The notes: generated by a model from the letters alone, not told the origin. Counted from the stretch's first letter, positions 17,991 through 64,000 are shown. The stretch: 64,000 nucleotides of DNA from Escherichia coli (GCF_036507355.1 NZ_AP027877.1); one strand, 5' to 3'. A program made the numbers and translations.

Positions 17991-18956
17991 TTATTTTTCT
18001 GCACTACGCAGGGATATTTCACCGCCCATCCAGGGTTTTATTATTCCATCCTGCTCAAGCAATAAAGCGCCCTGTTTGTCTATTCCGCGTGAAATGCCAA
18101 ATATTTCTTTATCACCAATGATAAGTTTCACTGGGCGATTAATAAAATTATCCAGCTTTTCCCAGCGCGAAAGATAAGGTGCCAATCCTTCTTGTTCGAA
18201 GAGTTCCAGCGCCGCGCGTAATTCACGTATTAGCATGGCCGCCAACGTATTACGATCGAGATTGATCCCCGCTTCCTGCAGCGTGATCCACCCCTGATTA
18301 ACGACACTCTCTTCAACACGACGCATTGCCATGTTGATCCCGGCTCCAATGACTATTTGCGCCGCATCGCCGGTTTTACCAGTCAGCTCCACAAGAATGC
18401 CTGCCAGCTTGCGATCCTGCAGATAGAGGTCATTAGGCCATTTGACACGAACTTTATCTGCTCCCAGCTTGCGTAATACTTCCGCCATCACGATACCGAT
18501 AACCAGACTTAAACCAATCGCCGCCGCCGGGCCTTGTTCCAGACGCCAGAACATCGACAAATATAAGTTTGCGCCAAAAGGCGAAAACCATTTCCGCCCC
18601 CGGCGACCACGGCCAGCCTGCTGGTATTCTGCAACGCAGGCATCGCCCGATTTAAGCTCTCCGATACGATCAAGAAGGTACTGATTCGTGGAGTCAATAA
18701 CTGGCAGCACGGCTACACTACCGCCATCCAGCTGACCCAATATCTGTTCAGCATTAAGTAACTGGATGGGCTCAGGCAGGCTGTATCCTTTACCCGGAAC
18801 GGTAAAGACATCAACGCCCCAGTCACGCAGTGTCTGAATGTGTTTATTAATAGCCGCCCGGCTCATTCCCAGCGTTTCACCCAACTGCTCGCCAGAGTGA
18901 AATTCACCGTTCGCTAACAGGGCAATCAATTTCAGTGGCACGGTGTTATCCTTCAT
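17991..18956 (-). CDS. birA: biotin--[acetyl-CoA-carboxylase] ligase / bio operon repressor BirA
   Basis: 321 aa ORF; its start overlaps the murB stop by 4 bp. Confidence 0.95.
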
Positions 18957-19981: not shown

Positions 19982-20059
19982 AGCTGCTTTCCTGATGCAA
20001 AAACGAGGCTAGTTTACCGTATCTGTGGGGGGATGGCTTGTAGTTATGACGACAGGGAG

Positions 20060-20112
20060 AGTTTGTAGAAACGCAAAAAGGCCCAGTCTTCCGACCGGGC
20101 CTTCTGCTTAAT
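20060..20112 (-). terminator. rrn operon terminator following the 5S gene
   Basis: - strand reads CAAATTAAGCAGAAGGCCCGGTCGGAAGACTGGGCCTTTTTGCGTTTCTAC: a GC hairpin plus U-run. Confidence 0.75.
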
Positions 20113-20115
20113 TTG

Positions 20116-20235
20116 ATGCCTGGCAGTTCCCTACTCTCGCATGGGGAGACCCCACACTACCATCGGCGCTACGGCGTTTCACTTCTGAGTTCGGCATGGG
20201 ATCAGGTGGGACCACCGCGCTACGGCCGCCAGGCA
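20116..20235 (-). rRNA. rrfB: 5S ribosomal RNA
   Basis: 120 nt; reverse complement reads TGCCTGGCGGCCGTAGCGCGGTGGTCCCACCTGACCCCATGCCGAACTCAGAAGTGAAACGCCGTAGCGCCGATGGTAGTGTGGGGTCTCCCCATGCGAGAGTAGGGAACTGCCAGGCAT. Confidence 0.97.
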
Positions 20236-20328
20236 AATTCTGTTTTATCAGACCGCTTCTGCGTTCTGATTTAATCTGTATCAGGCTGAAAATCTTCTCT
20301 CAATCCGCCAAAACAGCTTCGGCGTTGT

Positions 20329-30768: not shown

Positions 30769-32085
30769 TTACTGCAATTCTTTGGCCGGTTCTTTTACGT
30801 ACAACAACGCCAACATCGACAGCAACGTGCCTCCACCCAGATACCACGCCGGAGCCGTCAAACTATCCAGCAACACGATGGATTGCGTAGCGAAATATTG
30901 AGCAAAACCGCCAAAGATTGCCACACCAATGCTATAAACCAGCGCAAAACCCAATGCCCGAATCCGTTTCGGCAACAGTTCAGAGATCAACAACATCACT
31001 GGCACACCGCCAAGCGTGGTAAAGCTGACCATCACGAAAACCACCGTCAGCAACATGCCAGGGCTTGGGTAATTCACCAACAGCCAGAATGACGGCCAGC
31101 TACAGATCAGCACCATCACACGGGAGATTAAAATCAGCTTTTTACGCCCGACCGAATCGCACAACATCCCCACAAGCAGCGCACCCACAAACGTAATAAC
31201 GCCCGCCAGTAACATCGCTGCATGAGAATAATGTTGAGGCATCGCCAGATACTTCGCCGCCCAGGTGCCGTAATAAAAGAGGGAGATATAGGTTGCGACC
31301 GTGCTACCAATAGCGAGTAAAACGCCATTAACGATAGTCGCCTTATGTTGCAGGAGCAGAGAAAACGCGCTTTCGCTGGTAGCAGCTTTTTTATTGCGCA
31401 CAGGCTCAGGTACGTCATTTTCCAGACTCAAACGCAACCAACAGCCGACAGGCGCTAATAACACGCCAATAAAAAACGGCACACGCCAGCCCCATTCAGC
31501 CATGACGGTTTCTGAACCGGTCGCAAAGGGCAGCCATGCACTTAAACCTAAAGCGACAACACCTCCAAAAGTTGTTGCCAGGCCTTGAGTCGCCAGTGAC
31601 CAACTGCTGTAAAAACCGCGACGATTTGCCGGAGCTGATTCAACCAACAAAGACATTGAGGCACCGACTTCGCCTCCTGCCGCAACGCCCTGAATTAGAC
31701 GCGCTAGCACCAGCGTCGCGGTTCCCCAATAGCCCGCCGTCGCATACGTCGGCGCAATGCCAATCATCAACGTGCCGAGGCTCATCAGGGCAATAGTGAA
31801 CACCATCGCGGGTTTGCGTCCGAAACGATCGGCCCAGGCCCCGACGATAATTCCACCAAGCGGGCGCATAAAAAAACTCACGCCAAACGTTGCAAATGCC
31901 AGTAACAGCGCGACATTGTGATCAGCGCTGGGTGGGAAGAAAAGCGTACTGATATAGACCACAAAAAAGTTGTAAACGCCAAAATCAAAAAATTCGAGCG
32001 CATTGCCAAACGCCGAGGCAAAAATCACCCGCCTGCCACTAGGCTTTTTCTTCACACTCACGCTTTCATTTACGATCGCCGTCAT
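30769..32085 (-). CDS. MFS transporter, metabolite:H+ symporter (MHS) type (ProP/KgtP/ShiA-like)
   Basis: 438 aa, multi-span hydrophobic profile, with the MFS/MHS signature [13 protein letters not shown]; not expected between fabR and sthA in the K-12 order. Confidence 0.8.
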
Positions 32086-32128
32086 TCCATGTTCCTTGCC
32101 ATAAAGAGTTGTTGTGTTGTTTTTTTAT

Positions 32129-33295
32129 TTATTGCAGCCAGGCTTCTACCAGTGCGCCCCAGTAGCTGCTTGCCGGGATCAGACTTGCATCGTTGAAGTC
32201 GTAACCCGGGTTATGCACCATGCAGGAACCTTCCCCGACATCGCCATTACCGAATAACAGGAAACCGCCTTTGGGTTGGGCTTCCAGCATGAAAGAGAAA
32301 TCCTCACTGCCCATCAGGGGCTTGATGCCAAACTCGGCCCGATCTTCACCAAACGTTTTACACGCCACCTGCCAGGCGAAGCGCGCCATCTCCTCGTCAT
32401 TCACTAATACCGGTGTACCGTTAACATGCGTAACCTCAGCCGTAGCACCAAAGCTGGCAGCCTGGGCCTGTGCCAAAGCAGGAATACGGGTCAGAAGAAG
32501 TTGTCGGGTATCGCGGCTAAGAGAGCGGACGCTGATTTTCATCTCAGCACTGTCAGGAATGACGTTAGCCGCCTCCCCTGCAACAATGCTGCCAACGGTA
32601 ATTACCGCCGCTTCCAGCGGATCGACATTGCGTGACACAATGCTTTGTAATGCGGTGGTGATATGTGCGGCAACCAGCACCGGATCGATGGCTTTGTGCG
32701 GGATCGCACCGTGTCCGCCACAACCACGAACCGTAATATGGAACTGATCCATTGACGCCATCAGTGCCCCTGGCTGGAAATAAAACTTACCCACCGGCAG
32801 ACCGGGCATGTTATGCATGCCGAAAATGACATCGCAGGGGAAACGATCAAAAAGCCCCTCTTTAACCATGATCTCACCGCCGTTAATCATCTCTTCCGCA
32901 GGCTGGAAGATAAGACGTAACGTGCCGTTAAAACGGCGGGTTTCGGCAAAATAACGCGCGGCCCCCAGCAGTATGGTGGTATGCCCGTCATGCCCGCAGG
33001 CGTGCATTAAACCAGGATGTTTACTGGCCCAGGGCTTGCCACTATTTTCATAAATCGGCAACGCATCCATATCCGCCCGCAGGCCAATACTTTTCTCTCC
33101 GTCGCCCACTTTTAACGTGGCTACCACGCCGGTTGTCGCCAGCCCTTGCTCAACCTTATAGCCCCACTGGCGCAGCTTTTCCGCAACCAAAGCACTGGTT
33201 TTAAATTCTTGTAATCCCAGCTCCGGGTTTTCGTGGATCTGATGGCGGATCTCACGCAGTTCTTCCTCAAACCCTCGAATATAGTGTTCGATCAT
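32129..33295 (-). CDS. M20D-family amidohydrolase (hippurate hydrolase / N-acyl-amino-acid amidohydrolase-like)
   Basis: 388 aa with the metal-binding motif MHACGHDGHT typical of M20D amidohydrolases; 43 bp upstream of the MFS gene on the same strand, so likely one operon. Confidence 0.8.
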   Translation of the reverse strand: MIEHYIRGFEEELREIRHQIHENPELGLQEFKTSALVAEKLRQWGYKVEQGLATTGVVATLKVGDGEKSIGLRADMDALPIYENSGKPWASKHPGLMHACGHDGHTTILLGAARYFAETRRFNGTLRLIFQPAEEMINGGEIMVKEGLFDRFPCDVIFGMHNMPGLPVGKFYFQPGALMASMDQFHITVRGCGGHGAIPHKAIDPVLVAAHITTALQSIVSRNVDPLEAAVITVGSIVAGEAANVIPDSAEMKISVRSLSRDTRQLLLTRIPALAQAQAASFGATAEVTHVNGTPVLVNDEEMARFAWQVACKTFGEDRAEFGIKPLMGSEDFSFMLEAQPKGGFLLFGNGDVGEGSCMVHNPGYDFNDASLIPASSYWGALVEAWLQ

Positions 33296-45908: not shown

Positions 45909-46760
45909 ATGTATCACGACGTCAGCTATCTGCTCTCCCGCCTGATCAACGGCCCGCTGTCCCTGCGCCAGATTTACTTTGCCAGCAGTAACGGCCCGGT
46001 GCCCGATCTTGCGTATCAGGTCGATTTTCCACGGCTGGAAATTGTGCTGGAAGGTGAGTTTGTTGATACCGGCGCTGGAGCAACGTTAATTCCCGGCGAT
46101 GTGCTGTACGTTCCTGCTGGTGGCTGGAATTTTCCACAATGGCAAGCCCCCGCCACTACCTTTAGCGTGCTGTTTGGCAAACAGCAACTCGGCTTCAGCG
46201 TCGTGCAATGGGATGGCAAACAATATCAAAATCTGGCGAAGCAACACGTCGCCCGGCGCGGCCCACGCATAGGTTCTTTTCTGCTACAAACGCTCAATGA
46301 AATGCAAATGCAGCCGCAGGAGCAGCAAACGGCAAGGCTTATCGTCGCCAGCCTGCTTAGCCACTGCCGCGATTTGCTCGGCAGCCAAATCCAGACCGCC
46401 TCACGCAGCCAGGCACTGTTCGAAGCTATTCGCGATTATATCGACGAACGCTATGCCTCCGCGCTTACCCGCGAATCTGTTGCACAGGCGTTTTATATTT
46501 CACCAAACTATCTCTCGCACCTGTTTCAAAAAACGGGGGCCATTGGTTTTAACGAATACCTGAATCACACGCGACTGGAGCACGCTAAGACGTTATTGAA
46601 AGGCTATGACCTGAAGGTAAAAGAAGTGGCGCACGCCTGCGGCTTTGTCGACAGCAACTACTTCTGCCGTCTGTTTCGTAAAAACACCGAACGCTCGCCG
46701 TCGGAATATCGTCGGCAGTACCACAGCCAACTGACAGAAAAACCGACTACTCCAGAATAA
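45909..46760 (+). CDS. yijO: AraC/XylS-family transcriptional regulator YijO
   Basis: 283 aa ORF with a C-terminal AraC-type HTH (...YLSHLFQKTGAIGFNEYLNHTRLEHAKTLL...); its 3' end overlaps frwD convergently. Confidence 0.9.
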   Translation: MYHDVSYLLSRLINGPLSLRQIYFASSNGPVPDLAYQVDFPRLEIVLEGEFVDTGAGATLIPGDVLYVPAGGWNFPQWQAPATTFSVLFGKQQLGFSVVQWDGKQYQNLAKQHVARRGPRIGSFLLQTLNEMQMQPQEQQTARLIVASLLSHCRDLLGSQIQTASRSQALFEAIRDYIDERYASALTRESVAQAFYISPNYLSHLFQKTGAIGFNEYLNHTRLEHAKTLLKGYDLKVKEVAHACGFVDSNYFCRLFRKNTERSPSEYRRQYHSQLTEKPTTPE

Positions 46761-47088
46761 GATGGGTTTGCTGCGGCGCAGAAAGCACTTTGCGCACCGC
46801 GCTCATTACCCGCTGCGGCTCACGCAGGAATGCGTAGATGCTGCATTGCACATAGCGGCAATGTTCAAATCGCTCGGCACCGGCAAGCTCGATATCCGTA
46901 ATCAACAGAGCAACATCCGCCCGACGGATATCCTCGTCCGCTAAACGATTCTCCGTTCCCAGCGCGCCCTGAGTTTCAATGCTGACTCCCCACTTCTCTA
47001 ACAGGCACAACTTTTCCAGCCGTTCCGCCGCCATATAAGTATGCGCCACGCCGCTTACGCAGGCGGTTACTGCCACCAGGTATGCCAT
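46747..47088 (-). CDS. frwD: fructose-like PTS EIIB component FrwD
   Basis: 113 aa ORF MAYLVAVTACVSGVAHTYMAAERLE... with an EIIB-Fru type active-site Cys region. Confidence 0.9.
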   Translation of the reverse strand: MAYLVAVTACVSGVAHTYMAAERLEKLCLLEKWGVSIETQGALGTENRLADEDIRRADVALLITDIELAGAERFEHCRYVQCSIYAFLREPQRVMSAVRKVLSAPQQTHLILE

Positions 47089-47089
47089 T

Positions 47090-47968
47090 TTAACCTCCCA
47101 CGGTAACCTGAAATCCGGCCCGTTCTGCCATTTCGCGCATCGTTGTCACATCGGCTGACGACGGCGCAGGCACCTCTTTCATCGACCATGTTTTCCCCAG
47201 CAGGCGGTATTTCGGTTCGCCGTACTGATGAAACGGTAACAGATGGATCTGCCTGATTTTCAGCGGGATCAGTACATCCAGCGCCTGCTGCATATTCTCC
47301 CGGCTGAGCGTGAAACCAGGGATCAGCGGTAAACGCGGGATCACGTTGACACCCTCACTCACCAGCAAACGCAGATTCTCCATCACGCGTGGCAGGTTCA
47401 TCTTCACCACATCCCGCGCCTGAGTCGCATCCATGATTTTTAAATCGAACAACACTTCATCGCACAATTTCGCCAGTGGTAACAGCTTGCTGGCTGGTGC
47501 GTCTCCGGCAGTTTCAATGGCGCATGACACACCCCACAGCCGCAGTCGCTGTAAAAAACGGGTAGCAAACTCCGCCTGCATTAACACTTCGCCGCCAGAA
47601 AGCGTGACGCCGCCGCCGGACGTGCGAAAGAAAATGTCATCTTTCATCACTTCCCGTTCCAGCGCGTCAAGGCTGATATCGCGACCAATCCGTTCAAACG
47701 CCCCGGAGGGGCATTCATCCGCATCACGCAAACATTTCGCACAGTGCAGACATTTCGCCTCTCTGCGTACCGTCTGGATTTTGCCGGAGATCGACTCCGG
47801 ATTAGCACACCACGGGCAAAGATGCGGACAGCCTTTAAAAAAGACCACCGTACGAATGCCCTCGCCGTCATTCAGTGAATAACGCTGAATGTTAAAAATG
47901 CGCGCCACATCATTGCGGCGCGTTTCCACAACGTTACAGCTGATGCGCTGTCCGGCGGATGATGTCAT
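47090..47968 (-). CDS. pflC: glycyl-radical enzyme activating protein (radical SAM) PflC
   Basis: Start set at MTSSAGQRISCNVVETRR (292 aa); CPHLCPWC radical-SAM cluster motif; overlaps the 3' end of pflD. Confidence 0.92.
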   Translation of the reverse strand: MTSSAGQRISCNVVETRRNDVARIFNIQRYSLNDGEGIRTVVFFKGCPHLCPWCANPESISGKIQTVRREAKCLHCAKCLRDADECPSGAFERIGRDISLDALEREVMKDDIFFRTSGGGVTLSGGEVLMQAEFATRFLQRLRLWGVSCAIETAGDAPASKLLPLAKLCDEVLFDLKIMDATQARDVVKMNLPRVMENLRLLVSEGVNVIPRLPLIPGFTLSRENMQQALDVLIPLKIRQIHLLPFHQYGEPKYRLLGKTWSMKEVPAPSSADVTTMREMAERAGFQVTVGG

Positions 47969-50231
47969 CCTGGATCTCCTTCGACAGTTCGACAAAGAAG
48001 GCGCTGTATCCGGCAACGCGCACCACCAGCCCGGCATAATCTTGTGGGCGCTGTTGCGCTTCCCGCAACGTGTCGGCGTTCACCACGTTAAACTGAATAT
48101 GTTGTAACTTAAGCTGGGTAAACGCCCGTAAGAAGTCGGCCAGTTTGCGTAATCCCGCTTCACCTTCCAGGGTCGCCGGAGTGAATTTCACGTTCAGCAA
48201 CGTACCGTTAGACAGCAGCGTATTATCGAGCTTACTGACTGACTTCAGTACCGCTGTTGGCCCTTGTGCGTCCTGGCCCAGCATGGGTGACAAGCCGCCG
48301 TCTGCCAGTTGTTCCCCGGCAAAACGACCGTCTGGCGTCGCACCAACCACCGATCCCAACGGGACGTGAGCAGAAACGGTATACGATCCCGGCGTGAAGT
48401 AACCGCCGCGCGGGTTCTGGTATTTTTCCACTTCTTTGCAGTAGTGGCGCAACAGTTCGGCGCTAATGTTATCCACCTCGTCGATATCGTTACCGTATTT
48501 CTCAAAGCGGTTAATTAAGCGAGCGCGGACTTTTTCGCCTTCTGGCGTTGCAAAGTTGGCTTTTAATACCGACAGCAATTCGTCAAAACTTAAACGCTGT
48601 TGATCAAAAACCATCCCTTTCAACGCATGGAGAGAATCGCTCAGGTTGGCGATACCAATTCCCTGTACGCCGGAGAAGTTATAACGCGCGCCGCCATCGG
48701 TAATATCGCGGCCTTTTTCCAGACAATCGCTGATAAACGATGAGAGCAGCGGTACAGGTGCCCAGTCGCGATGGCCGATATCACAAATATTGCTGCCCTC
48801 AACCATCAGGGTGATGTAGTGGCTGATCTTGGCGCGGATCTGCTCCAGTAAACCTTCATAAGTCAGCGCAGCATTGCCTTCATTTTCATGCAGGCAGATT
48901 TCCATCACTTTCAGCAGATTAAACATCGCGATGTCATGCAAGCCGTAGGTTCTGCCGGGAATAGATAATTCCACACAGCCCACTACGGAATAGTCGCGCG
49001 CATCTTCCAGCGAAACGCCACGGTTGAGGAACGCTGGCACCACCACTTCATCGTTAAAGATTTGCGGAATACCGGTGCCGAGGCGAATGGTTTCGGCGGT
49101 TTTCATCAGGAACGGCGTGTCGATCAAGGCGTTAGTGCGCACGCCGAGGTTCGGTTGCGGTAATTGTACGCTTTGATAGGCATCGAGGCAGAGGAACGAA
49201 AGCACGTTCACCGCGCTACGTCCGTTCTCGGTTAACCCGCCGAGCAGTGCGGTATAGCCAGTCGGGAAACCTGCGAAATAACGCGCGCTGCTGGTGGAGC
49301 GCAACAGCACAATGTCGTTGCATTTCACCCATAAAGATTCGAGCAGTTCTTTCAGGAACGCCGGATCTTCGCCCTGGGTTAAAGATGCCTGATAGAACGG
49401 CAACATATACTGGTCGAAGCGCCCTAAAGACAGCGAACTGGCGTTGGATTCGTATTGCAGAATGATGTTCATGTACCAGAATAACTGGCACGCCTGCCAG
49501 AACGTCTGCGGTTTATGTTCGGCGTTATGGCGGGAGATCTCCGCAATAGTCAGCAGTTCTTCGCGACGCTGGGCATCAGTGCAGCCTGCCGCCATCGTTT
49601 CCGCCAGTTCGGCGTAACGCAAAATGTGTTTCTGCGAGGCTTCGAGCAGTAACAGCGCTGCCTGATAAAAGTGATTCTCCGGCTGTTGCTGACAATGTTG
49701 CTGCATCTGTGCCACCAGCTCCCCCAGCCCGTGATTCAGCAGGCGCGGGTAATCAATAATAATGTGCCCCTGGCCTTTATCCGTCTGGTTGATGCTGAAA
49801 ATCTGCGTGCTGGTCGCGGCTTTTACTTCATCCGTCATCTGCCCGTTGATGAAATCTTTCATCGAACGTTTTTCCCAGTACGGGAACAACTCTTCGCGGT
49901 AGATACGTTTATCTTCTTCGCTGATAGCGAAGCGGTCCTGCGGACGCGTCGGGAACTGATCCAACTCTTTCAGCAGCCAGTAAGGATCCATTTCCGGCGA
50001 CATAATCCCGGCGCGCGGTTTTACGGTGCGGTTACCGGCAATCAGTTCTTCATCACGAATCGAAATTTCAACATGTTCAAGGATATACGCTGTTGCTTTC
50101 GCCCGGCGCAATATCACCGGTTCGCCTTCGGTTTGCCGATGGCTGGCGGTATAAAGCCGCGCACGCTCCAGCGAGATTTCACGGGTATTGGCAAACAGTG
50201 CAGTTTTGAGGCGAGAGATACGATTCGTCAT
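47934..50231 (-). CDS. pflD: pyruvate formate-lyase-like glycyl radical enzyme PflD
   Basis: 765 aa ORF with the C-terminal glycyl-radical motif ...VRVAGYSAFFVEL... Confidence 0.95.
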   Translation of the reverse strand: MTNRISRLKTALFANTREISLERARLYTASHRQTEGEPVILRRAKATAYILEHVEISIRDEELIAGNRTVKPRAGIMSPEMDPYWLLKELDQFPTRPQDRFAISEEDKRIYREELFPYWEKRSMKDFINGQMTDEVKAATSTQIFSINQTDKGQGHIIIDYPRLLNHGLGELVAQMQQHCQQQPENHFYQAALLLLEASQKHILRYAELAETMAAGCTDAQRREELLTIAEISRHNAEHKPQTFWQACQLFWYMNIILQYESNASSLSLGRFDQYMLPFYQASLTQGEDPAFLKELLESLWVKCNDIVLLRSTSSARYFAGFPTGYTALLGGLTENGRSAVNVLSFLCLDAYQSVQLPQPNLGVRTNALIDTPFLMKTAETIRLGTGIPQIFNDEVVVPAFLNRGVSLEDARDYSVVGCVELSIPGRTYGLHDIAMFNLLKVMEICLHENEGNAALTYEGLLEQIRAKISHYITLMVEGSNICDIGHRDWAPVPLLSSFISDCLEKGRDITDGGARYNFSGVQGIGIANLSDSLHALKGMVFDQQRLSFDELLSVLKANFATPEGEKVRARLINRFEKYGNDIDEVDNISAELLRHYCKEVEKYQNPRGGYFTPGSYTVSAHVPLGSVVGATPDGRFAGEQLADGGLSPMLGQDAQGPTAVLKSVSKLDNTLLSNGTLLNVKFTPATLEGEAGLRKLADFLRAFTQLKLQHIQFNVVNADTLREAQQRPQDYAGLVVRVAGYSAFFVELSKEIQDDIIRRTAHQL

Positions 50232-50281
50232 GAGGAACTCCTGTGGGAAAGCGAACCCGCCCTTGCGAGCGGGATAAGAAC

Positions 50282-50602
50282 TTAAGCGGTTTGCGCCAGG
50301 TGAGCTTCAATTTTGCTCATAATGGCATCAGCGCGTTTAACCGCGTCGCTGATGTTGACGCGCACGATGGTCTTGCCAGCAAAACGCTCTTCAAACTTGA
50401 TGCCGATATCTTTGGTCAGAATCACCATATCGGCGCTCGCCACGTCTTCCGCAGTCAGTTCATTTTCCAGACCAATCGAGCCCTGGGTTTCTACTTTCAC
50501 TTCCCAGCCTTTCGCTTTCGCGGCACTTTCCAGCGCCTCTGCCGCCATATAGGTATGGGCAACACCTGAAGGACATGCGGTTACTGCAATAATTTTCGTC
50601 AT
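50282..50602 (-). CDS. frwB: fructose-like PTS EIIB component FrwB
   Basis: 106 aa ORF MTKIIAVTACPSGVAHTYMAAEALE... Confidence 0.92.
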   Translation of the reverse strand: MTKIIAVTACPSGVAHTYMAAEALESAAKAKGWEVKVETQGSIGLENELTAEDVASADMVILTKDIGIKFEERFAGKTIVRVNISDAVKRADAIMSKIEAHLAQTA

Positions 50603-50616
50603 GGCTCGTTCCTCAA

Positions 50617-51696
50617 TTAATTAATTTCAAAATCCAAATCCAGGTCGTCTTCTTTTTCATCAGTCGAAGACCCATTTTTACGCGCCAGACTTTTCAGCAC
50701 GTTCACACAAACAGCCGTCACCACTGCTCCGACAGCCACTGCTGCGATATAACCCAGCTTGCCTTCAACCACCGGCAGCACAATCAGACCACCCCAGCCT
50801 GCATAGCACTGCGCACCGACCAGCGCCGCAGTTACTGCACCACAAACTGAACCGACCATGATGGAAGGAATGACACGCAGCGGATCGGCAGCGGCGAAAG
50901 GAATCGCCCCTTCAGTAACCCCAACGCACCCCATCACCAGCGCCGCTTTACCAGTTTCGCGCTCTTCTGCGGAGAAATTTTTACGACCAATCAGCGTCGC
51001 CAGCCCCATCCCCAGCGGCGGGATACAAATACCCACGGCAGCAATGGCCACCACGGTATATACACCCTGAGCAACGCAAATCAGCATGAAGGCATAGGCC
51101 ACTTTGTTAACCGGACCGCCCATATCGAACGCCAGCATCAGACCCATGATCACCGCCAGCATAACAATGCTGCCCTGCTGCATCCCCTGAAGCCACTGAG
51201 TCAGGCTGTTGGTCAACGCCCCTACAGGCTCGCCCAGACCCCACATCATGATGCCTGCGGTAATCAGTGTGCCGATGATCGGAATGATGAAGATGGGCAT
51301 CACCGAGCGCAGAACTTTATGCACCGGAATTTTCTTCAGGTAATGCACCACGATGCCGCCGATAATCCCGGCGATCAGCGCACCAAAGAAGCCCGCACCA
51401 AAGCTGTTACCAACCCAGGCACCGATAGCGCACGGGGCCAGCGCAGAACGCTCTGCAATGGAGTAACCGATGTAAGCGGCGAGGAAAGGCACCATCAACG
51501 TCAAACCTGCAACGCCGATATCAAACAGTTTTTTCAAATTCGGATCGGCTACGGCATCCGGCACTGCGCCTTTGCCATACAACATGACGGAAACCGCCAG
51601 CAAAATACCGCCCGATACCACGAAGGGAATCATGTGTGAAACGCCCGTCATTAAGTGCTGACGGGTATTTTTCAGGATCTGCACCAACTCATTCAT
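50617..51696 (-). CDS. frwC: fructose-like PTS EIIC component FrwC
   Basis: Start set at MNELVQILKNTRQHLMTGVSHMIPFVV (359 aa); polytopic membrane protein; the ORF track's upstream extension is rejected. Confidence 0.9.
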   Translation of the reverse strand: MNELVQILKNTRQHLMTGVSHMIPFVVSGGILLAVSVMLYGKGAVPDAVADPNLKKLFDIGVAGLTLMVPFLAAYIGYSIAERSALAPCAIGAWVGNSFGAGFFGALIAGIIGGIVVHYLKKIPVHKVLRSVMPIFIIPIIGTLITAGIMMWGLGEPVGALTNSLTQWLQGMQQGSIVMLAVIMGLMLAFDMGGPVNKVAYAFMLICVAQGVYTVVAIAAVGICIPPLGMGLATLIGRKNFSAEERETGKAALVMGCVGVTEGAIPFAAADPLRVIPSIMVGSVCGAVTAALVGAQCYAGWGGLIVLPVVEGKLGYIAAVAVGAVVTAVCVNVLKSLARKNGSSTDEKEDDLDLDFEIN

Positions 51697-52004
51697 AAGC
51701 TGCTCCCGGGCTTGCAAAAGCCCATGTCCATATTTTTGATGGAGGAAACAATAGGCAATCGTAGGCGGAGCAAACAGTGGATAAAAAGGCCATTTACTGG
51801 ACTTTTGTAATATCAGTACAAAAATGCGATCCGCCTCATAACTTGCGAGAATCCGGAAGCACGCCACAAAACGGCGTCTTGTGAGACGCGTCGCAAATTG
51901 ACGGTTACATTACATTTGTCCAGCTTTTGGCAGATTTGTCACATGGCAGGCCGTTGCCGTGCGCTCTTATCCTGTAAACAGAAAACCGTACCGGGAGAGA
52001 GGCA

Positions 52005-54506
52005 ATGGCCCTGATTGTGGAATTTATTTGTGAGCTACCTAACGGCGTACATGCACGTCCGGCAAGCCACGTTGAAACGCTGTGTAATACTTTTTCATCA
52101 CAAATTGAGTGGCATAACCTGCGCACTGACCGCAAGGGCAACGCCAAAAGCGCCCTTGCGCTGATTGGCACCGACACGCTGGCGGGCGATAACTGCCAGT
52201 TACTGATTTCCGGGGCCGACGAACAGGAAGCGCACCAGCGTTTAAGCCAATGGCTGCGCGATGAATTCCCCCACTGCGATGCGCCGCTGGCGGAAGTTAA
52301 ATCTGACGAACTGGAACCACTGCCGGTTTCACTGACCAATCTGAATCCGCAAATTATCCGCGCCCGCACCGTGTGCAGCGGTAGCGCAGGCGGCATTCTG
52401 ACGCCGATCTCTTCTTTAGATCTCAATGCGCTGGGTAATCTTCCCGCAGCCAAAGACGTTGACGCCGAGCAATCCGCACTGGAAAACGGCCTGACGCTGG
52501 TACTGAAAAACATTGAGTTTCGTCTGCTGGATAGAGACGGTGCCACCAGCGCGATTCTGGAAGCGCACCAATCCTTGGCTGGCGATACTTCCCTGCACGA
52601 ACATTTACTGGCAGGCGTCAGCGCCGGATTAAGCTGCGCCGAAGCGATTGTCGCCAGTGCGAATCACTTTTGTGAAGAGTTTTCCCGTTCCAGCAGCAGC
52701 TACCTGCAAGAACGTGCCCTGGACGTACGCGACGTCTGTTTCCAGTTACTCCAGCAAATCTACGGTGAGCAACGCTTCCCGGCACCGGGCAAACTGACGC
52801 AGCCCGCCATTTGTATGGCTGATGAACTCACCCCCAGCCAGTTCCTCGAACTGGATAAAAATCACCTCAAAGGATTGTTACTGAAAAGCGGCGGCACCAC
52901 CTCACATACGGTGATCCTTGCCCGTTCGTTCAACATTCCGACACTGGTTGGTGTAGATATTGATGCCCTTACTCCGTGGCAGCATCAAACGATTTATATC
53001 GACGGCAACGCCGGGGCGATTGTGGTTGAGCCAGGGGAAGCCGTAGCTCGTTATTATCAGCAAGAAGCCCGCGTACAGGACGCCCTTCGTGAGCAACAGC
53101 GTGTCTGGCTGACCCAACAAGCCCGTACCGCTGACGGTATCCGCATTGAAATTGCCGCTAACATCGCTCACTCCGTGGAAGCGCAGGCCGCATTCGGCAA
53201 TGGTGCGGAAGGCGTTGGTTTGTTCCGCACTGAAATGCTCTATATGGATCGCACCAGTGCACCGAGCGAAAGCGAGCTGTACAACATTTTTTGTCAGGCG
53301 CTGGAGTCTGCCAACGGACGCAGCATTATTGTGCGCACTATGGACATTGGCGGCGACAAACCCGTTGATTATCTGAACATTCCGGCAGAAGCTAACCCGT
53401 TCCTCGGTTATCGCGCTGTGCGTATTTATGAAGAATACGCCTCGCTGTTCACCACACAACTACGGTCGATCCTGCGCGCCTCCGCTCACGGCAGCCTGAA
53501 AATCATGATCCCGATGATCTCTTCAATGGAAGAGATCTTATGGGTGAAAGAAAAACTGACGGAAGCCAAACAGCAACTGCGTAACGAACACATTCCGTTT
53601 GATGAGAAGATCCAGCTCGGCATTATGCTGGAAGTGCCATCGGTGATGTTCATCATCGATCAATGCTGCGAAGAGATTGATTTCTTTAGTATTGGTAGTA
53701 ATGACCTGACGCAATATCTGCTGGCGGTGGATCGCGATAACGCTAAGGTTACTCGTCACTACAACAGCCTGAATCCGGCATTCTTGCGGGCGCTCGATTA
53801 CGCCGTGCAAGCGGTGCATCGCCAGGGCAAATGGATTGGTCTGTGCGGTGAGCTGGGAGCGAAAGGTTCCGTGCTGCCGTTGCTGGTCGGCTTAGGGCTG
53901 GATGAACTCAGCATGAGCGCACCATCAATTCCGGCGGCGAAAGCGCGGATGGCGCAACTTGATAGCCGTGAGTGCCGCAAGTTGCTCAACCAGGCAATGG
54001 CCTGCCGTACTTCGCTGGAAGTGGAACACCTGCTGGCGCAATTCCGCATGACCCAACAAGACGCACCGCTGGTCACCGCCGAGTGCATCACACTGGAAAG
54101 CGACTGGCGCAGCAAAGAAGAAGTGCTCAAAGGCATGACCGATAACCTGCTGCTGGCAGGGCGCTGCCGCTATCCGCGTAAACTGGAAGCCGACTTGTGG
54201 GCGCGCGAGGCCGTTTTCTCTACCGGTCTGGGCTTTAGTTTTGCCATTCCCCACAGCAAATCAGAACACATTGAGCAATCCACCATCAGCGTAGCGCGTC
54301 TGCAAGCGCCGGTGCGCTGGGGCGATGATGAAGCGCAATTCATCATTATGTTAACCCTGAACAAACACGCTGCGGGCGATCAGCACATGCGCATTTTCTC
54401 GCGCCTCGCTCGCCGCATCATGCACGAAGAATTCCGTAACGCGCTGGTTAACGCCGCCTCTGCCGACGCTATCGCCAGCCTGCTGCAACATGAACTGGAA
54501 CTGTAA
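52005..54506 (+). CDS. ptsA: multiphosphoryl transfer protein PtsA/FrwA (HPr-like, Enzyme I and EIIA-Fru domains)
   Basis: 833 aa ORF with an N-terminal HPr-like His (NGVHARPA), a central PEP-utilising Enzyme I domain, and a C-terminal EIIA-Fru-like domain ([11 protein letters not shown]). Confidence 0.95.
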
Positions 54507-54517
54507 AAGGAAACATC

Positions 54518-55180
54518 ATGGAACTGTATCTGGACACCGCTAACGTCGCAGAAGTCGAACGTCTGGCACGCATATTCCCGATTGCCGGGGTGACAACTAA
54601 CCCGAGCATTATCGCTGCCAGCAAGGAGTCCATATGGGAAGTGCTGCCGCGTCTGCAAAAAGCGATTGGTGATGAGGGCATTCTGTTTGCTCAGACCATG
54701 AGCCGCGACGCGCAGGGGATGGTGGAAGAAGCGAAGCGTCTGCGCGACGCCATTCCGGGCATTGTGGTGAAAATCCCGGTGACTTCCGAAGGTCTGGCCG
54801 CCATTAAGATGCTGAAAAAAGAGGGTATTACTACGCTTGGCACCGCAGTGTACAGTGCTGCACAAGGGTTACTGGCCGCGCTGGCAGGGGCAAAATACGT
54901 TGCTCCGTATGTTAACCGCGTAGATGCCCAGGGCGGGGACGGCATTCGTACGGTTCAGGAGCTGCAAGCGCTGTTAGAAATGCACGCACCAGAAAGCATG
55001 GTGCTGGCGGCCAGCTTTAAAACGCCGCGTCAGGCGCTGGACTGTTTACTGGTAGGATGTGAATCCATCACCCTGCCCTTAGATGTAGCGCAACAAATGC
55101 TCAACACCCCTGCGGTAGAGTCAGCTATAGAGAAGTTCGAACACGACTGGAATGCCGCATTTGGCACTACTCATCTCTAA
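54518..55180 (+). CDS. fsaB: fructose-6-phosphate aldolase 2
   Basis: 220 aa [223 protein letters not shown]; transaldolase-like fold. Confidence 0.95.
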
Positions 55181-55190
55181 AGGAGCAATT

Positions 55191-56294
55191 ATGGACCGCA
55201 TTATTCAATCACCGGGTAAATACATCCAGGGCGCTGATGTGATTAATCGTCTGGGCGAATACCTGAAGCCGCTGGCAGAACGCTGGTTAGTGGTGGGTGA
55301 CAAATTTGTTTTAGGTTTTGCTCAATCCACTGTCGAGAAAAGCTTTAAAGATGCTGGACTGGTAGTAGAAATTGCGCCGTTTGGCGGTGAATGTTCGCAA
55401 AATGAGATCGACCGTCTGCGTGGCATCGCGGAGACTGCGCAGTGTGGCGCAATTCTCGGTATCGGTGGCGGAAAAACCCTCGATACTGCCAAAGCACTGG
55501 CACATTTCATGGGTGTTCCGGTAGCGATCGCACCGACTATCGCCTCTACCGATGCACCGTGCAGCGCATTGTCTGTTATCTACACCGATGAGGGTGAGTT
55601 TGACCGCTATCTGCTGTTGCCAAATAACCCGAATATGGTCATTGTCGACACCAAAATCGTCGCTGGCGCACCTGCACGTCTGTTAGCGGCGGGTATCGGC
55701 GATGCGCTGGCAACCTGGTTTGAAGCGCGTGCCTGCTCTCGTAGCGGCGCGACCACCATGGCGGGCGGCAAGTGCACCCAGGCTGCGCTGGCACTGGCTG
55801 AACTGTGCTACAACACCCTGCTGGAAGAAGGCGAAAAAGCGATGCTTGCTGCCGAACAGCATGTAGTGACTCCGGCGCTGGAGCGCGTGATTGAAGCGAA
55901 CACCTATTTGAGCGGTGTTGGTTTTGAAAGTGGTGGTCTGGCTGCGGCGCACGCAGTGCATAACGGCCTGACCGCTATCCCGGACGCGCATCACTATTAT
56001 CACGGTGAAAAAGTGGCATTCGGTACGCTGACGCAGCTGGTTCTGGAAAATGCGCCGGTGGAGGAAATCGAAACCGTAGCTGCCCTTAGCCATGCGGTAG
56101 GTTTGCCAATAACTCTCGCTCAACTGGATATTAAAGAAGATGTCCCGGCGAAAATGCGAATTGTGGCAGAAGCGGCATGTGCAGAAGGTGAAACCATTCA
56201 CAACATGCCTGGCGGCGCGACGCCAGATCAGGTTTACGCCGCACTGCTGGTAGCTGACCAGTATGGACAACGTTTCCTGCAAGAGTGGGAATAA
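55191..56294 (+). CDS. gldA: glycerol dehydrogenase
   Basis: Start set at [24 protein letters not shown] (367 aa); iron-containing alcohol dehydrogenase family. Confidence 0.95.
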
Positions 56295-56339
56295 CCTACT
56301 CCAAACTCCCGGCTTGTCCGGGAGTTTGAACGCAAAATT

Positions 56340-56440
56340 GCCTGATGCGCTACGCTTATCAGGCCTACGCAATCTCTGCAATATATTGAATTTGCGTGCT
56401 TTTTAGGCCAGATAAGGCGTTCACGCCGCATCCGGCACTC
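56340..56440. repeat. REP (repetitive extragenic palindrome) elements downstream of gldA
   Basis: gcctgatgcgctacgcttatcaggcctac and aggccagataaggcgttcacgccgcatccggcac are both classic REP palindromic units. Confidence 0.85.
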
Positions 56441-56567
56441 TGTGCCAGTAATCTGAAACTCCCACGTTGTTCAGGAGTTTTTTATCCGCTTCTGGACATT
56501 TTCTCTACAGAACAATCGTTATCCCGGAAGGTCGAATCTGTGACTCTTATTTTCACGGACGAACCAG

Positions 56568-57185
56568 ATGAAAGCTTCACTGGCGCTGCTCAGCCTGCTA
56601 ACGGCATTTACCAGCCACTCCTTAAAATCTCCCGCCGTTCCACCAACCGTGGTACAAATCCAGGCCAATACCAACCTTGCCATCGCAGACGGTGCCAGAC
56701 AGCAAATCGGCAGCACGCTATTTTACGATCCGGCGTATGTGCAGCTTACCTATCCTGGCGGTGATGTCCCGCAAGAACGCGGGGTATGTTCCGATGTGGT
56801 GATCCGTGCATTGCGCAGCCAGAAGGTCGATTTGCAGAAACTGGTGCACGAAGATATGGCGAAGAATTTTGCCGATTATCCGCAAAAGTGGAAGTTAAAG
56901 CGCCCGGACAGCAACATCGATCACCGTCGGGTGCCTAATCTGGAAACCTGGTTTACCCGCCACGATAAAACACGCCCCACCAGCAAGAACCCCAGTGACT
57001 ATCAAGCGGGCGACATTGTCTCCTGGCGATTAGATAACGGGCTGGCACATATTGGGGTGGTGTCAGATGGCTTCGCCCGCGACGGTACGCCGCTGGTGAT
57101 ACATAACATTGGCGCAGGTGCGCAGGAAGAAGATGTGCTGTTTAGCTGGCGCATGGTGGGGCATTATCGTTATTTTGTTAAATAA
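56568..57185 (+). CDS. yijF: DUF1287-family protein YijF (signal peptide predicted)
   Basis: 205 aa ORF MKASLALLSLLTAFTSHSLKSP... in the expected position between gldA and yijE. Confidence 0.88.
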   Translation: MKASLALLSLLTAFTSHSLKSPAVPPTVVQIQANTNLAIADGARQQIGSTLFYDPAYVQLTYPGGDVPQERGVCSDVVIRALRSQKVDLQKLVHEDMAKNFADYPQKWKLKRPDSNIDHRRVPNLETWFTRHDKTRPTSKNPSDYQAGDIVSWRLDNGLAHIGVVSDGFARDGTPLVIHNIGAGAQEEDVLFSWRMVGHYRYFVK

Positions 57186-57211
57186 GCGATCGCCCCACAT
57201 GAAGAAAAAAT

Positions 57212-58117
57212 TCAGATCCTTTTTACACTAACGGCTTCTTTTTTCTTACGGCTCACCAGCGCCAGTGCCAGCACAATCAGCACAATACCGCTACCTTCAA
57301 CGGTCCCCGGATTCTCGTCGAGCAGCCACCAGGAAAAGAGTACGCCGCAAACGGGAACGGCCAGTGTGCTTAAGCTGGCAATACTGGCAGGCAAGTTTTT
57401 CAATACAAACAACCATAAGCTCCACGCCAACGCCGTCGCCAGAATCGCACTGTAGGCCAGAGCCCAGAACACAGTGGGCTGCCAGTCAATTTCACGTTGC
57501 GGCACCAGTAAAGCGACCACACTCATCACCAGCGCCGCATAGAGCATCTGCCAGGATGTTAACGACAATAAATCCACGCGCGGATGACGGGCATACAGAC
57601 GTTTAGCAACAATCGCGCTCGCCCCCCAACTAACACCGGAGAGGATTGCCAGCATGGCACTTTTCATCGAAGAGAAATCGAGTTGCCACGGCTGCAACAC
57701 CAAAAATAAGCCGAAAGCGGCAATCAGAATCGCGAAATATTGCCCACGTCGCAGGCGTTCACCGAGAAACACCGCGGCGAAAATCACCACCCAGAACGGC
57801 ATGGTATAGCTCAGGATCGCCACCTTCCCCGCTCCGCCGCTGACCAGCGCCCACTGCGCCAGGCCAACCATCCCGCAGGTTTGTAACAGGGCAATGGCTA
57901 AGGTGTATTTAAACGGTGTCGGGCGCATTCCGCGACCACGTAATAAAAGGACGATGAATAAAACGAGAGCGCCGAAAATGCAGCGTAAGGCGGTAAAGTC
58001 GAAGGCACCGATGTAGCTGGTGACTTGCTTCATGAAAATCCAGCTATAACTCCAGATAAGTGTGAGCACAACCAGGCCACTGATTGCCAGTGGGTTGCTC
58101 TTTCCTGCGGCAGACAT
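57212..58117 (-). CDS. yijE: EamA/DMT-family inner membrane transporter YijE
   Basis: Start set at [22 protein letters not shown] (301 aa); ten-span hydrophobic profile. Confidence 0.9.
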
Positions 58118-61700: not shown

Positions 61701-62108
61701 AAGGGCGTCAACCGAAAAATGACCAATGATGGTGAGGAAAAATCAGGGAAGATGAATTTTCTTCATCTGTATATGGGAGTAGATAGGTTCTCTCGCATTA
61801 TCGCGTCGTGAAGTAATGAATAAATGCTTAAGCCATCGGCTGGAAATTTATTTAAATAAGAGTTAATTAATATTCACGACGGTGTTAGCTGAACACTTAT
61901 TTAAATAAAACAAATAGATACCATAATTTGCATTCATTACTGCATGTTTATTATTTGAACTACTTCAAACTATTAATAATTTTTCAAAAATTATGTTGCA
62001 GAGCAATTATGTATCCCCCACGATAAGTAGAACGTTCTACTAGAACGTTCTACTTATACAAAAAAGACTAATTCGCGCAGCTTTATGCGCTATTCGGGGG
62101 AAATCAGC

Positions 62109-63434
62109 ATGAGTCTGATGTCGAGTTTCGTGAAGTCACTTTCTAAATTATCGATGATTGGTCGCGCCCTAATGCTACCAATTTCGCTTCTGCCTGCCGC
62201 GGGGTTGTTACTCGCGTTCGGCGATAAATTCCATTTGCCGTTGATGATGAATGCGGGCGGCATTATTTTTGATAACTTGCCGATGCTTTTTGCTATCGGT
62301 TCCGCCGTAGGGCTGGCTTCTGAATCGGGAATTGCGGCGTTATCCGCAGCCGTTTCCGTTTTTGTCACCAATATCACCATCAGCACCGTACTTAGCATTA
62401 CGCCAGAAATGGCCGGGCAAGGCGGCAAATACGCGATGGTGGTGGGGATCCCAACACTGCAAATGGGCGTTTTTGGCGGCCTGATATGCGGGATTCTGGC
62501 GGCGTGGTGTTACAACCGTTTTCATACAATGCAATTGCCAGAATTCCTTGGTTTTTTCTCCGGAAAACGCTTTGTGGCTATCGCGACGGCTTTTCTCTCC
62601 TTCATTCTTGGCTTGTCACTGCCTTATGTCTGGCAACACATTCAGTCAGGAATCGATGCGTTATCGGTTATCGTTAATGGTAACAACCAGGCAGCATCAA
62701 CCTTTATTTTTGGTGTAACTGAACGGGCGCTCATTCCGCTTGGCCTGCACCACATCTGGTATCCATCGTTTTGGTATTCTTTTGGGGATTACACTACCCA
62801 TGCCGGGCAAATGATTCACGGCGATCAGACGATTTGGTTCAAGATGTTGGAAGAAGGGGTGAAATCATTTAGCAGCGACAGTTATCATGACGCTGGTAAA
62901 TTTATGCAAGGTGAATTCCCACTGATGCTGTTTGCCCTGCCTGCGGCGTGCCTGGCGATGTATCTGCTGCATGCACATATTGCCAAATCCTTCTCTGCGG
63001 GGCTTATTGACTATATTTCGTTTGGTATCCTGCCATCCTTTAATGGCTACGAAACCAACTTCCTGAGCGCCATTATCGTCGGCGTGCCAATGGCGGTGAT
63101 CTACTACTTCACCTTCCGCTTTGTTATTCGTCGTTTTGATGTAAAAACGCCTGGTCGCACCGAAACTACGGTTAGCGCTAATGATAAATCCGATGACGAG
63201 CTGGCAACAGAAATCATCACGCTGCTTGGCGGTCAGCAAAACGTTAAATCGGTAGGTTCCTGCATCACGCGTTTACGTCTGGAAGTCTCTGATAAAGAAG
63301 CGGTGGATCAGGATGGTCTGAATAATATTGGCGCCCGTGGCGTGGTTTTTGTCGGCGATAACGGCATTCAGGTAATTTTTGGCGCGCGAGCGCAATTTAT
63401 CGCGCAAACCATGTCGACGATGATCGGTAAATAG
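62109..63434 (+). CDS. PTS glucose/glucoside-family EIICB component (substrate unknown; alpha-glucoside-type suspected)
   Basis: 441 aa from MSLMSSFVKSL (the in-frame ATG at 62085 is less likely; GGGGGA SD sits before 62109); polytopic EIIC domain plus C-terminal EIIB with active-site Cys in GSCITRLRLEVSD; not expected upstream of metF in K-12. Confidence 0.8.
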   Translation: MSLMSSFVKSLSKLSMIGRALMLPISLLPAAGLLLAFGDKFHLPLMMNAGGIIFDNLPMLFAIGSAVGLASESGIAALSAAVSVFVTNITISTVLSITPEMAGQGGKYAMVVGIPTLQMGVFGGLICGILAAWCYNRFHTMQLPEFLGFFSGKRFVAIATAFLSFILGLSLPYVWQHIQSGIDALSVIVNGNNQAASTFIFGVTERALIPLGLHHIWYPSFWYSFGDYTTHAGQMIHGDQTIWFKMLEEGVKSFSSDSYHDAGKFMQGEFPLMLFALPAACLAMYLLHAHIAKSFSAGLIDYISFGILPSFNGYETNFLSAIIVGVPMAVIYYFTFRFVIRRFDVKTPGRTETTVSANDKSDDELATEIITLLGGQQNVKSVGSCITRLRLEVSDKEAVDQDGLNNIGARGVVFVGDNGIQVIFGARAQFIAQTMSTMIGK

Positions 63435-63515
63435 CCTTAAGATTACTCGATGTCAGAGGTTCTGGTCCCTGACCAGAACCTTCTTGCTATTTAAAGAATC
63501 AACGTTGTTCAGGGA

Positions 63516-64000
63516 GTGAGTTTGAAGAAAGTCAGCATAATTGATGTTGCTAAAAGAGCCGGAGTTTCCGTCTCTACCGTGTCGCTAGTGCTGCGCCAGA
63601 AAGGGAAAATCTCAGAGGCGACCATCGGGAAAGTTCATGCTGCTATTGACGAACTGGGCTACGTGCATAATGTTGCCGCCGCCAATTTACGTTCCCACAC
63701 TTCAAATCTTATCGGACTGATTTTACGTGATTTTAGCGATAGCTTTTCCATCAAAGTGATGGCTAGCATTGTTCAGGAACTGGAAGCCAAGGGCTATATG
63801 GTATTCCTTGGGCAACCACAGAACGAACATGAACATCTTGAACGTTGTTTACTTTCCTTCAAGCAACAAGGTGTTGCCGGAGTGATTTATCTGGCTTCCG
63901 ATGCGCATCGTGAAACCCTACCCACACTAATCCGCCAGTGTTCGCTTCCCCTTGTCGTCGCGTCACAAACGCCCATCAAAGATGAGTGCAACCTGGTGTT
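63516..64000 (+). CDS. LacI/GalR-family transcriptional regulator, N-terminal part (3' end outside window)
   Basis: HTH IIDVAKRAGVSVSTVSLVLRQKGKISEATIGKVHAAIDELGYVHNVAAANL; start at GTG 63516 or TTG 63522, preceded by an AGGGAG SD. Confidence 0.75.
   Translation, partial: MSLKKVSIIDVAKRAGVSVSTVSLVLRQKGKISEATIGKVHAAIDELGYVHNVAAANLRSHTSNLIGLILRDFSDSFSIKVMASIVQELEAKGYMVFLGQPQNEHEHLERCLLSFKQQGVAGVIYLASDAHRETLPTLIRQCSLPLVVASQTPIKDECNLV

Follow-up and report, generated by a model that had tools for sequence, protein, structure and literature searches.

The intact frw-pflDC/ptsA-fsaB-gldA locus of Escherichia coli as the probable 1,5-anhydromannitol branch of radical-mediated anhydroglycolysis

Introduction

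Anaerobic routes for the degradation of 1,5-anhydroglucitol (AG) and 1,5-anhydromannitol (AM) have been described as supporting growth of Escherichia coli and many gut bacteria, with growth of E. coli reported on 1,5-AG (PMC12441222). In section 5.1 of that paper, which summarises Ma et al. (2024; JACS 146:26187-26197, doi 10.1021/jacs.4c07718), both routes start with phosphorylation to the 6-phosphate by a phosphotransferase system (PTS), and the E. coli glycyl radical enzymes (GREs) YbiW and PflD cleave 1,5-AG-6-phosphate (AG6P) and 1,5-AM-6-phosphate (AM6P), respectively, to 1-deoxyfructose-6-phosphate in reactions that require the glycyl radical (PMC12441222). A second paper also cites Ma et al. 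(2024) for YbiW and PflD. Here, we examine the pflD locus in a 64,000-nucleotide (nt) stretch of E. coli DNA (GCF_036507355.1 NZ_AP027877.1; hereafter the window), where pflD and its activase gene pflC lie among the genes of a fructose-family PTS (frwC, frwB and frwD), divergent from ptsA-fsaB-gldA and next to the regulatory gene yijO (Table 1). We consider it very probable that this locus is the 1,5-anhydro-D-mannitol branch of the radical-mediated 'anhydroglycolysis' of E. coli. A first-pass annotation of the window had held that the substrates of the PTS and of the GRE were unestablished and that a published assignment would overturn this view; it is outdated, as the assignment of PflD to 1,5-AM6P in 2024 largely supplies what was called for (PMC12441222). 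The function of the cluster is already known from that publication, and the window adds nothing new to it.

Several described systems resemble parts of this locus. The nearest characterised family outside the PflD orthologues is the B12-independent glycerol dehydratase (PDB 1R8W), one of the GRE 1,2-eliminases (glycerol dehydratase, propanediol dehydratase, CutC and HypD), which like PflD have a single Cys, a Glu at +2 and the Gly radical motif. Their established mechanism is a radical beta-elimination adjoining a hydroxyl-bearing carbon. While these enzymes lose water, amine or sulfite, the leaving group in PflD would be the ring ether oxygen, making the reaction a ring-opening isomerisation, and its substrate is a phosphorylated C6 anhydroalditol, unlike those of the other GRE 1,2-eliminases. 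The pyruvate formate-lyase (PFL) PflB and its activase PflA share with PflD and PflC the glycyl radical domain, the overall PFL-like fold and the need for a radical S-adenosylmethionine (SAM) activase. PFL chemistry, by its established mechanism, needs an adjacent Cys-Cys pair, which PflB has as Cys418-Cys419, whereas PflD lacks the pair and fails the PFL model cut-off; the identity between PflB and PflD has been put in the low 20% range (PMC5600444).

Another example is the paralogous locus of E. coli K-12, ybiW-ybiY with a divergent fsaA, which likewise contains a dehydratase-clade GRE (with GCxE and RVAGYSA), its own activase and a gene for fructose-6-phosphate aldolase (FSA), and which gives the same product as the PflD branch. 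This locus differs in that YbiW acts on the C2 epimer (glucitol configuration), in having neither a dedicated PTS nor gldA, and in adjoining the sugar phosphatase gene ybiV.

PflD and its activase PflC

The window PflD is an orthologue of the characterised E. coli enzyme, as judged from a full-length alignment with PDB entry 8YJO ('Probable dehydratase PflD'; ~99% identical, 8 substitutions) and from its syntenic position. In the same search of the PDB (phmmer), the Streptococcus dysgalactiae orthologue 8ID0 scored 1056 bits, the B12-independent glycerol dehydratase 648, YbiW 481 and PflB 118. Entry 8YJO is E. coli PflD, 8YJN and 8ID7 are YbiW, and together with 8ID0 these entries fit the study of Ma et al. 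(2024). Among relatives at the 50%-identity representative level, no full-length relative was found between ~99% and 47% identity. The context of the 47%-identity relative is uninformative, as its contig of 3.8 kb carries, apart from it, an activase only.

The sequence of PflD places it among the dehydratases. It scores 1346.8 bits (cut-off 678.2) against TIGR01774, the model of the PFL2/glycerol-dehydratase subfamily, as opposed to 120.8 bits (cut-off 994.2) against the true PFL model TIGR01255, where the match is limited to the C-terminal 190 residues. Its Cys loop, VVG-C419-V-E421, is of the GCxE dehydratase/eliminase type and aligns with IG-C-I-E in YbiW, and in the same Cys columns PflB has A-C-C-V where PflD has G-C-V-E. 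The glycyl radical motif VVRVAG741YSA aligns with RVSG735Y of PflB (Pfam Gly_radical, 108 bits), and the other Pfam domain of the protein is PFL-like. The 8 substitutions relative to K-12 spare Cys419, Glu421 and Gly741. The description of PflD as a pyruvate formate-lyase paralogue in the first-pass annotation is therefore nominal only, given the missing Cys-Cys pair and a score far below the PFL cut-off.

The activase PflC matches NF007483 (628 bits) and the glycyl-radical activating protein model TIGR02494 (261 bits, cut-off 174), and carries the radical-SAM motif CX3CX2C at residues 47-54 (C47, C51 and C54). It has further cysteines at 73, 76, 79 and 86, an extra cluster that is presumably absent from the 246-aa PflA.

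As of June 2026, PflD and its orthologues in Enterobacterales, Streptococcus, Enterococcus, Clostridium and lactobacilli are named 'formate C-acetyltransferase' by PGAP and by the NCBIfam equivalog NF007437. Because of this annotation lag, name-based scans will go on reporting the locus as uncharacterised or mistaking it for part of formate metabolism.

The Frw/PtsA phosphotransferase system

The proteins encoded around pflD and across the divergent region appear to form a phosphorelay of their own. In PtsA, Pfam models place PTS-HPr at residues 7-84, PEP-utilisers_N/mobile/C at 123-653 and PTS_EIIA_2 (PF00359) at 690-829 (116.6 bits against a cut-off of 27), and the protein scores 483 bits against TIGR01417 (cut-off 341.7); PGAP labels the gene 'ptsP'. 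FrwC, with one amino acid (aa) change relative to K-12, matches NF007787 (719.8 bits against 426) and TIGR01427 (300.9 against 157.55). FrwB matches NF007783 (210 bits against 135) and TIGR00829 (137.7 against 76.85), shows no aa change relative to K-12 at 3.1% nucleotide divergence, and groups in alignment with the one IIB encoded in the S. dysgalactiae operon described below. FrwD, whose protein is identical to that of K-12, matches NF007747 (224 bits, cut-off 153) and, more narrowly, TIGR00829 (85.7 against 76.85). Cys10, in the AVTAC..GVAHTYMAAE loop of both FrwB and FrwD, is invariant in four Enterobacterales. Because the HPr, enzyme I (EI) and EIIA domains of PtsA, the EIIB proteins FrwB and FrwD and the EIIC protein FrwC all pass their models and Cys10 is kept, the locus is predicted to encode a complete private relay from phosphoenolpyruvate (PEP) to sugar. 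It has been reported that ptsA is the first gene of a ptsA-fsaB-gldA operon whose genes are anaerobically induced (PMC6643234).

A fructose-family transporter would suit AM on stereochemical grounds. Since D-mannitol is C2-symmetric, 1,5-anhydro-D-mannitol should be identical with 2,6-anhydro-D-mannitol and, by our reading, with 2-deoxy-D-fructopyranose. A fructose-family PTS phosphorylates the exocyclic C1-OH, and would therefore yield AM6P from this compound.

FsaB and GldA

FsaB scores 351.2 bits against TIGR00875 (cut-off 245.95), and its translation carries the Schiff-base Lys85 and the pocket residues Asp6, Thr26 and Asn28, as the FSA pocket residues are named in PMC6099348. FSA is reported to accept hydroxyacetone as donor, and in the same 2020 source its physiological role is still called 'enigmatic' and native fsaB expression too low for a role with dihydroxyacetone (DHA) or fructose-6-phosphate (F6P) (PMC7767278). 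The function published in 2024 explained these 'enigmatic' aldolases along with the uncharacterised GREs PflD and YbiW.

GldA is identical to the K-12 protein and scores 752.6 bits against NF047954 (cut-off 700), the model of a bifunctional L-1,2-propanediol/glycerol dehydrogenase. Both fsaB and gldA lie in the operon divergent from pflD, and the association of FSA with an oxidoreductase recurs in Streptococcus and Clostridium. Ma et al. (2024) reportedly found that E. coli grows on 1,5-anhydromannitol, that FsaA or FsaB splits 1-deoxyfructose-6-phosphate into glyceraldehyde-3-phosphate and hydroxyacetone, and that the latter is converted by GldA to 1,2-propanediol. Both of these steps are consistent with known enzymology and with the gene context.

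Related loci in other bacteria

A counterpart of the locus is found in Streptococcus dysgalactiae, whose PflD orthologue (8ID0) is 62% identical to PflD. Its operon runs in pathway order, EIIA (fructose-type)-EIIB-EIIC-GRE-activase-FSA-iron-type alcohol dehydrogenase (Fe-ADH, GldA-like), and covers the five functions of the E. coli locus, with all genes on one strand in one operon as opposed to the divergent operons of E. coli. The streptococcal EIIA is free-standing and must use the general EI and HPr, whereas E. coli has the HPr-EI-EIIA fusion. In addition, S. dysgalactiae has one IIB, no nearby AraC regulator and an activase of 261 aa, while E. coli has two IIB proteins, YijO and an activase of 292 aa.

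In Clostridium the PflD orthologue is followed by an activase, an FSA and an oxidoreductase, with a mannose-type PTS nearby, and in Lactiplantibacillus only a DeoR regulator and an activase adjoin it. The same Clostridium contig, which comes from a metagenome, has at 15838-18243 and 18662-20298 a second GRE (801 aa), 4.5 kb from the PflD orthologue and accompanied by an activase of its own, a DeoR regulator and the mannose-type PTS. This second GRE may represent the anhydroglucitol (YbiW-like) branch, here sharing a cluster with the anhydromannitol one.

Within Enterobacterales, yijO is syntenic with the module in Salmonella and Enterobacter. In Edwardsiella tarda, yijO, frwD-pflC-pflD-frwB-frwC and ptsA-fsa occur as a block at a different chromosomal site, without gldA.

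Proposed pathway and alternatives

In the proposed pathway, PEP would phosphorylate PtsA, first at the EI His, then at the HPr His and then at the EIIA-Fru His, from which the phosphoryl group would pass to Cys10 of FrwB, and perhaps also of FrwD. AM would enter through FrwC and receive the phosphoryl group at its exocyclic CH2OH, becoming AM-6-phosphate. Under anoxia, PflC would install the glycyl radical on Gly741 of the oxygen-sensitive PflD, and the resulting thiyl radical at Cys419 would abstract the C2 hydrogen of AM6P, with Glu421 acting as base. The C2 ketyl radical would expel the ring oxygen O5 from C1, and return of the hydrogen would give open-chain 1-deoxyfructose-6-phosphate. These radical steps are extrapolated from the established mechanism of the GRE diol dehydratases. 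With a radical formed at C2, two stereospecific paralogues acting on C2 epimers would thereby give one product. FsaB would split this product into glyceraldehyde-3-phosphate and hydroxyacetone, and GldA would use NADH to reduce hydroxyacetone to 1,2-propanediol; by our bookkeeping, this would reoxidise the NADH formed by oxidation of glyceraldehyde-3-phosphate. The assignment of Frw/PtsA as an AM-specific PTS, the roles given to FrwD and YijO and the redox bookkeeping are what we infer from these observations, and Frw as the AM transporter is the weakest link of the proposed pathway.

Several points weigh against this proposal. The carrier of AM could be ManXYZ, FruA or PtsG rather than Frw, and the PflD orthologues of Clostridium and Lactiplantibacillus are found without an adjacent fructose-type PTS. 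The Edwardsiella module is missing gldA. The FsaB and GldA steps, together with the AM growth phenotype, are taken from what the original study reportedly found and from a one-paragraph secondary summary, and cleavage of AM6P by the PflD of this strain, with its 8 substitutions, is predicted from orthology. When overexpressed, fsaB and gldA are also reported to act in dihydroxyacetone metabolism (PMC6643234).

Among the other explanations, the one that fares best concerns what the Enterobacterales-specific parts do. The PtsA fusion, FrwD and YijO could form a private phosphorelay and regulatory circuit, for example with FrwD as a sensor of phosphorylation state that feeds YijO, or the Frw substrate could be another anhydro- or ketose sugar; we regard this as possible but rather doubtful. 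Less probable, and in our view unlikely, is that the radical assignment is right in kind but the physiological substrate of Frw, and hence of the cluster in the gut, is fructose or some other ketose or anhydro-sugar instead of free 1,5-AM, with AM being taken up by a general PTS such as ManXYZ or FruA and Frw/PtsA serving as a phosphorelay that is separate or regulatory. In its favour, every domain of Frw and PtsA fits a fructose-family model, and one study connects PtsA with a putative PTS for catabolising fructose anaerobically (PMC6643234); the PflD orthologues that lack a neighbouring fructose-type PTS point the same way, as do the extra IIB protein FrwD and the dedicated EI-HPr-IIA fusion, which simple transport leaves unexplained. 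However, the frw and pfl genes are interspersed along a single strand (frwC-frwB-pflD-pflC-frwD, spacers of -35 to 50 nt), Enterobacterales retain them as a group even where the block has moved, and the Streptococcus operon has its fructose-type IIA-IIB-IIC genes immediately before that of the PflD orthologue. The match between a fructose-family PTS and AM, viewed as 2-deoxyfructopyranose, also argues for Frw as the AM carrier, as does the reported formation of the 6-phosphate by a PTS (PMC12441222).

It is very improbable that the main role of ptsA-fsaB-gldA is the fermentation of dihydroxyacetone and glycerol, with no functional tie to the divergent frw-pflDC operon, which would lie next to it for historical reasons. 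GldA interconverts glycerol and DHA, and overexpression of fsaB and gldA has been reported to improve growth on dihydroxyacetone (PMC6643234), and the position of gldA outside the relocated Edwardsiella module would agree with such a role; but ptsA encodes the only EI, HPr and EIIA partners that match the Frw IIB and IIC proteins, Firmicutes operons without any DHA context also have FSA after the PflD orthologue, the gene of the paralogous GRE YbiW also adjoins an FSA gene, and the low native expression of fsaB mentioned above speaks against a DHA role (PMC7767278). The least probable explanation, that PflD is a formate C-acetyltransferase (a second pyruvate/2-ketoacid formate-lyase giving acyl-CoA and formate, with the PTS and aldolase genes as mere neighbours), has in its favour the names given by RefSeq/PGAP, by NF007437 and for all named homologues, as well as the PFL-like and Gly_radical domains, but is effectively refuted by the Cys loop, by the model scores and by the reported failure of His-PflD to pull down FocA, unlike PflB and TdcE (PMC5600444), and is further opposed by the published AM6P assignment with its structures (PMC12441222).

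Gene integrity, layout and spread of the locus

The gene map given in Table 1 is one on which the open reading frame (ORF) list, the RefSeq annotation of the best-matching E. coli genome and the annotation of K-12 MG1655 all agree, and it bears out the gene content, order and strands of the first-pass annotation. Its description of the anatomy, as a self-contained fructose-family PTS and a glycyl radical enzyme with its own activase, followed by an FSA aldolase and GldA, was likewise accurate, and so was the statement that every gene is full length: the nine genes (45909-56294) have exactly their K-12 lengths, ATG starts, no internal stops and 0-8 aa differences each. The interval assigned to the cluster, 46747-54506, covers frwD to ptsA but ends with ptsA, leaving out yijO as well as fsaB and gldA, both of which were named in its title.

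Table 1. Genes and non-coding features of the frw-pflDC/ptsA-fsaB-gldA locus and its 3' flank (positions in the window).
Feature	Position	Strand	Description
yijO	45909-46760	+	AraC-family regulator, 283 aa; HTH_18/HTH_AraC domains
frwD	46747-47088	-	Second fructose-type PTS EIIB, 113 aa; PF02302 and NF007747
pflC	47090-47968	-	Radical-SAM activase for PflD, 292 aa; NF007483 and TIGR02494
pflD	47934-50231	-	Glycyl radical enzyme, 765 aa; TIGR01774
Short GC hairpin	50256-50273	-	In the 50-nt frwB-pflD spacer (50232-50281); from terminator-like scan
frwB	50282-50602	-	Fructose-type PTS EIIB, 106 aa; NF007783 and TIGR00829
frwC	50617-51696	-	Fructose-family PTS EIIC permease, 359 aa; NF007787 and TIGR01427
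frwC-ptsA divergent control region	51697-52004		308 bp
CRP site TGCGATCCGCCTCATA	51825-51840		Block conserved in all five aligned species
Putative second CRP-like palindrome TGTGAGACGCGTCGCA	51880-51895		9/10 to TGTGA-N6-TCACA; inverted repeat
Direct repeat ATTTGTC, 20-nt spacing	51914-51940 (feature to 51944)		Almost invariant across species
ptsA	52005-54506	+	Fused HPr-EI-EIIA(Fru) multiphosphoryl transfer protein, 833 aa
fsaB	54518-55180	+	Fructose-6-phosphate aldolase 2, 220 aa; TIGR00875
gldA	55191-56294	+	L-1,2-propanediol/glycerol dehydrogenase, 367 aa; NF047954
REP-like elements, gldA-yijF intergenic	56361-56477		Sub-threshold Rfam matches: ES036 (34.8 vs 37.6 bits), naRNA4 (32.7 vs 59.5 bits)

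The ratio of nonsynonymous to synonymous substitution rates (dN/dS) of the nine genes is 0.00-0.20 relative to K-12 and 0.02-0.10 relative to Salmonella, values from which it follows that all nine are genes under purifying selection rather than chance ORFs and that selection maintains the cluster. Of 5426 complete E. coli genomes, 5392 carry the 12-kb locus at >=80% coverage, making the cluster an ordinary, intact part of the core E. coli genome. The locus in K-12 MG1655 (b3945-b3954) has the same gene order, strands, lengths, overlaps and spacers, with 96.5-99.6% nucleotide identity per gene, and the window differs from it in allelic changes only. The whole window is colinear, in reverse orientation, with K-12 4132470-4192158 at 98.0-99.5% identity. 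The best identity over 46000-58000 among complete RefSeq E. coli genomes is at most 98.8%, and the strain of the window, an E. coli whose exact PflD sequence recurs in records of that species, appears to belong to a lineage that is poorly represented among complete genomes.

Two gene overlaps had been taken as signs of tight coupling, and both exist. The overlap of pflD and pflC is 35 nt on the same strand, with the start of pflC lying over the 3' end of pflD, an arrangement that would be compatible with translational coupling. The overlap of yijO and frwD, 14 nt between 3' ends and kept in Salmonella, Enterobacter and Edwardsiella, was misread: because these genes are convergent, it cannot represent translational coupling, and transcriptional interference is the most it could bring about. 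One published list of candidate convergent excludons includes yijO/frwD (PMC12288877).

Regulation and non-coding elements

YijO is a likely regulator of the module, since yijO moves with it in Edwardsiella; the dN/dS of yijO relative to Salmonella is 0.057. In alignment, the divergent region between frwC and ptsA includes long stretches without any change across the species, from E. coli to Edwardsiella. The TGCGATCCGCCTCATA motif in this region has been assigned to a CRP peak at ptsA/frwC by chromatin immunoprecipitation (ChIP) sequencing in enterotoxigenic E. coli (ETEC) H10407 (PMC4287617). In the second CRP-like palindrome, TGTGAGACGCGTCGCA, the half-sites are conserved across species and the spacer is variable. 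The ATTTGTC direct repeat might, speculatively, be a candidate YijO/AraC-type site; ATGTGACAAATCTGCCAA, a motif bound by PhoB in ChIP-chip, overlaps the repeat as the reverse complement of 51927-51944 and is given in the published table without an expression ratio (PMC3465305). Expression of the module is probably anaerobic and CRP-dependent.

The alignment of the divergent region contained no convincing conserved FNR site of the form TTGAT-N4-ATCAA. A scan for the sigma-70 consensus gave fewer matches than shuffled sequences and none in the divergent region 51697-52004, and a sigma-54 promoter considered at TGGCAG-N5-TCAC was rejected by inspection, as it has no GC at -12. Terminator-like matches in the locus were at chance level, and a search of the locus with Rfam gave no RNA family above its gathering score.

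The hairpin in the frwB-pflD spacer has base changes that keep its pairing in Enterobacter, while the spacers of Salmonella and Edwardsiella are longer and hold different insertions that look by eye like repetitive extragenic palindromic (REP) elements. An attenuator is not claimed here, as the fold is not significant relative to shuffles (z = 0.05), and the hairpin is possibly without function. Between gldA and yijF, the sub-threshold matches are to ES036 and naRNA4, which we take to be REP-derived families, and the element is probably a REP cluster.

Accessory segments elsewhere in the window

Beyond metF, at 61757-64000, the window departs from K-12. This segment contains an ORF at 62085-63434 (+) of 449 aa that resembles an EIICB of the glucose PTS family and matches IIBC models in two stretches, below their cut-offs, so that it may be shortened. 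The exact protein was not found in a collection of 15 billion proteins. The segment occurs at >=80% coverage in 8 of 5426 complete E. coli genomes, at ~87% identity and annotated as 'PTS transporter subunit EIIC | malI', and looks like a rare accessory island.

A second departure is an insertion of ~2.7 kb relative to K-12 between fabR and sthA (30769-33295, -), which encodes a major facilitator superfamily (MFS) metabolite/H+ symporter of 438 aa and an M20 amidohydrolase of 388 aa. A common accessory segment, it reaches >=80% coverage in 1505 of the 5426 genomes, which annotate it as 'citrate-proton symporter | M20 aminoacylase'.

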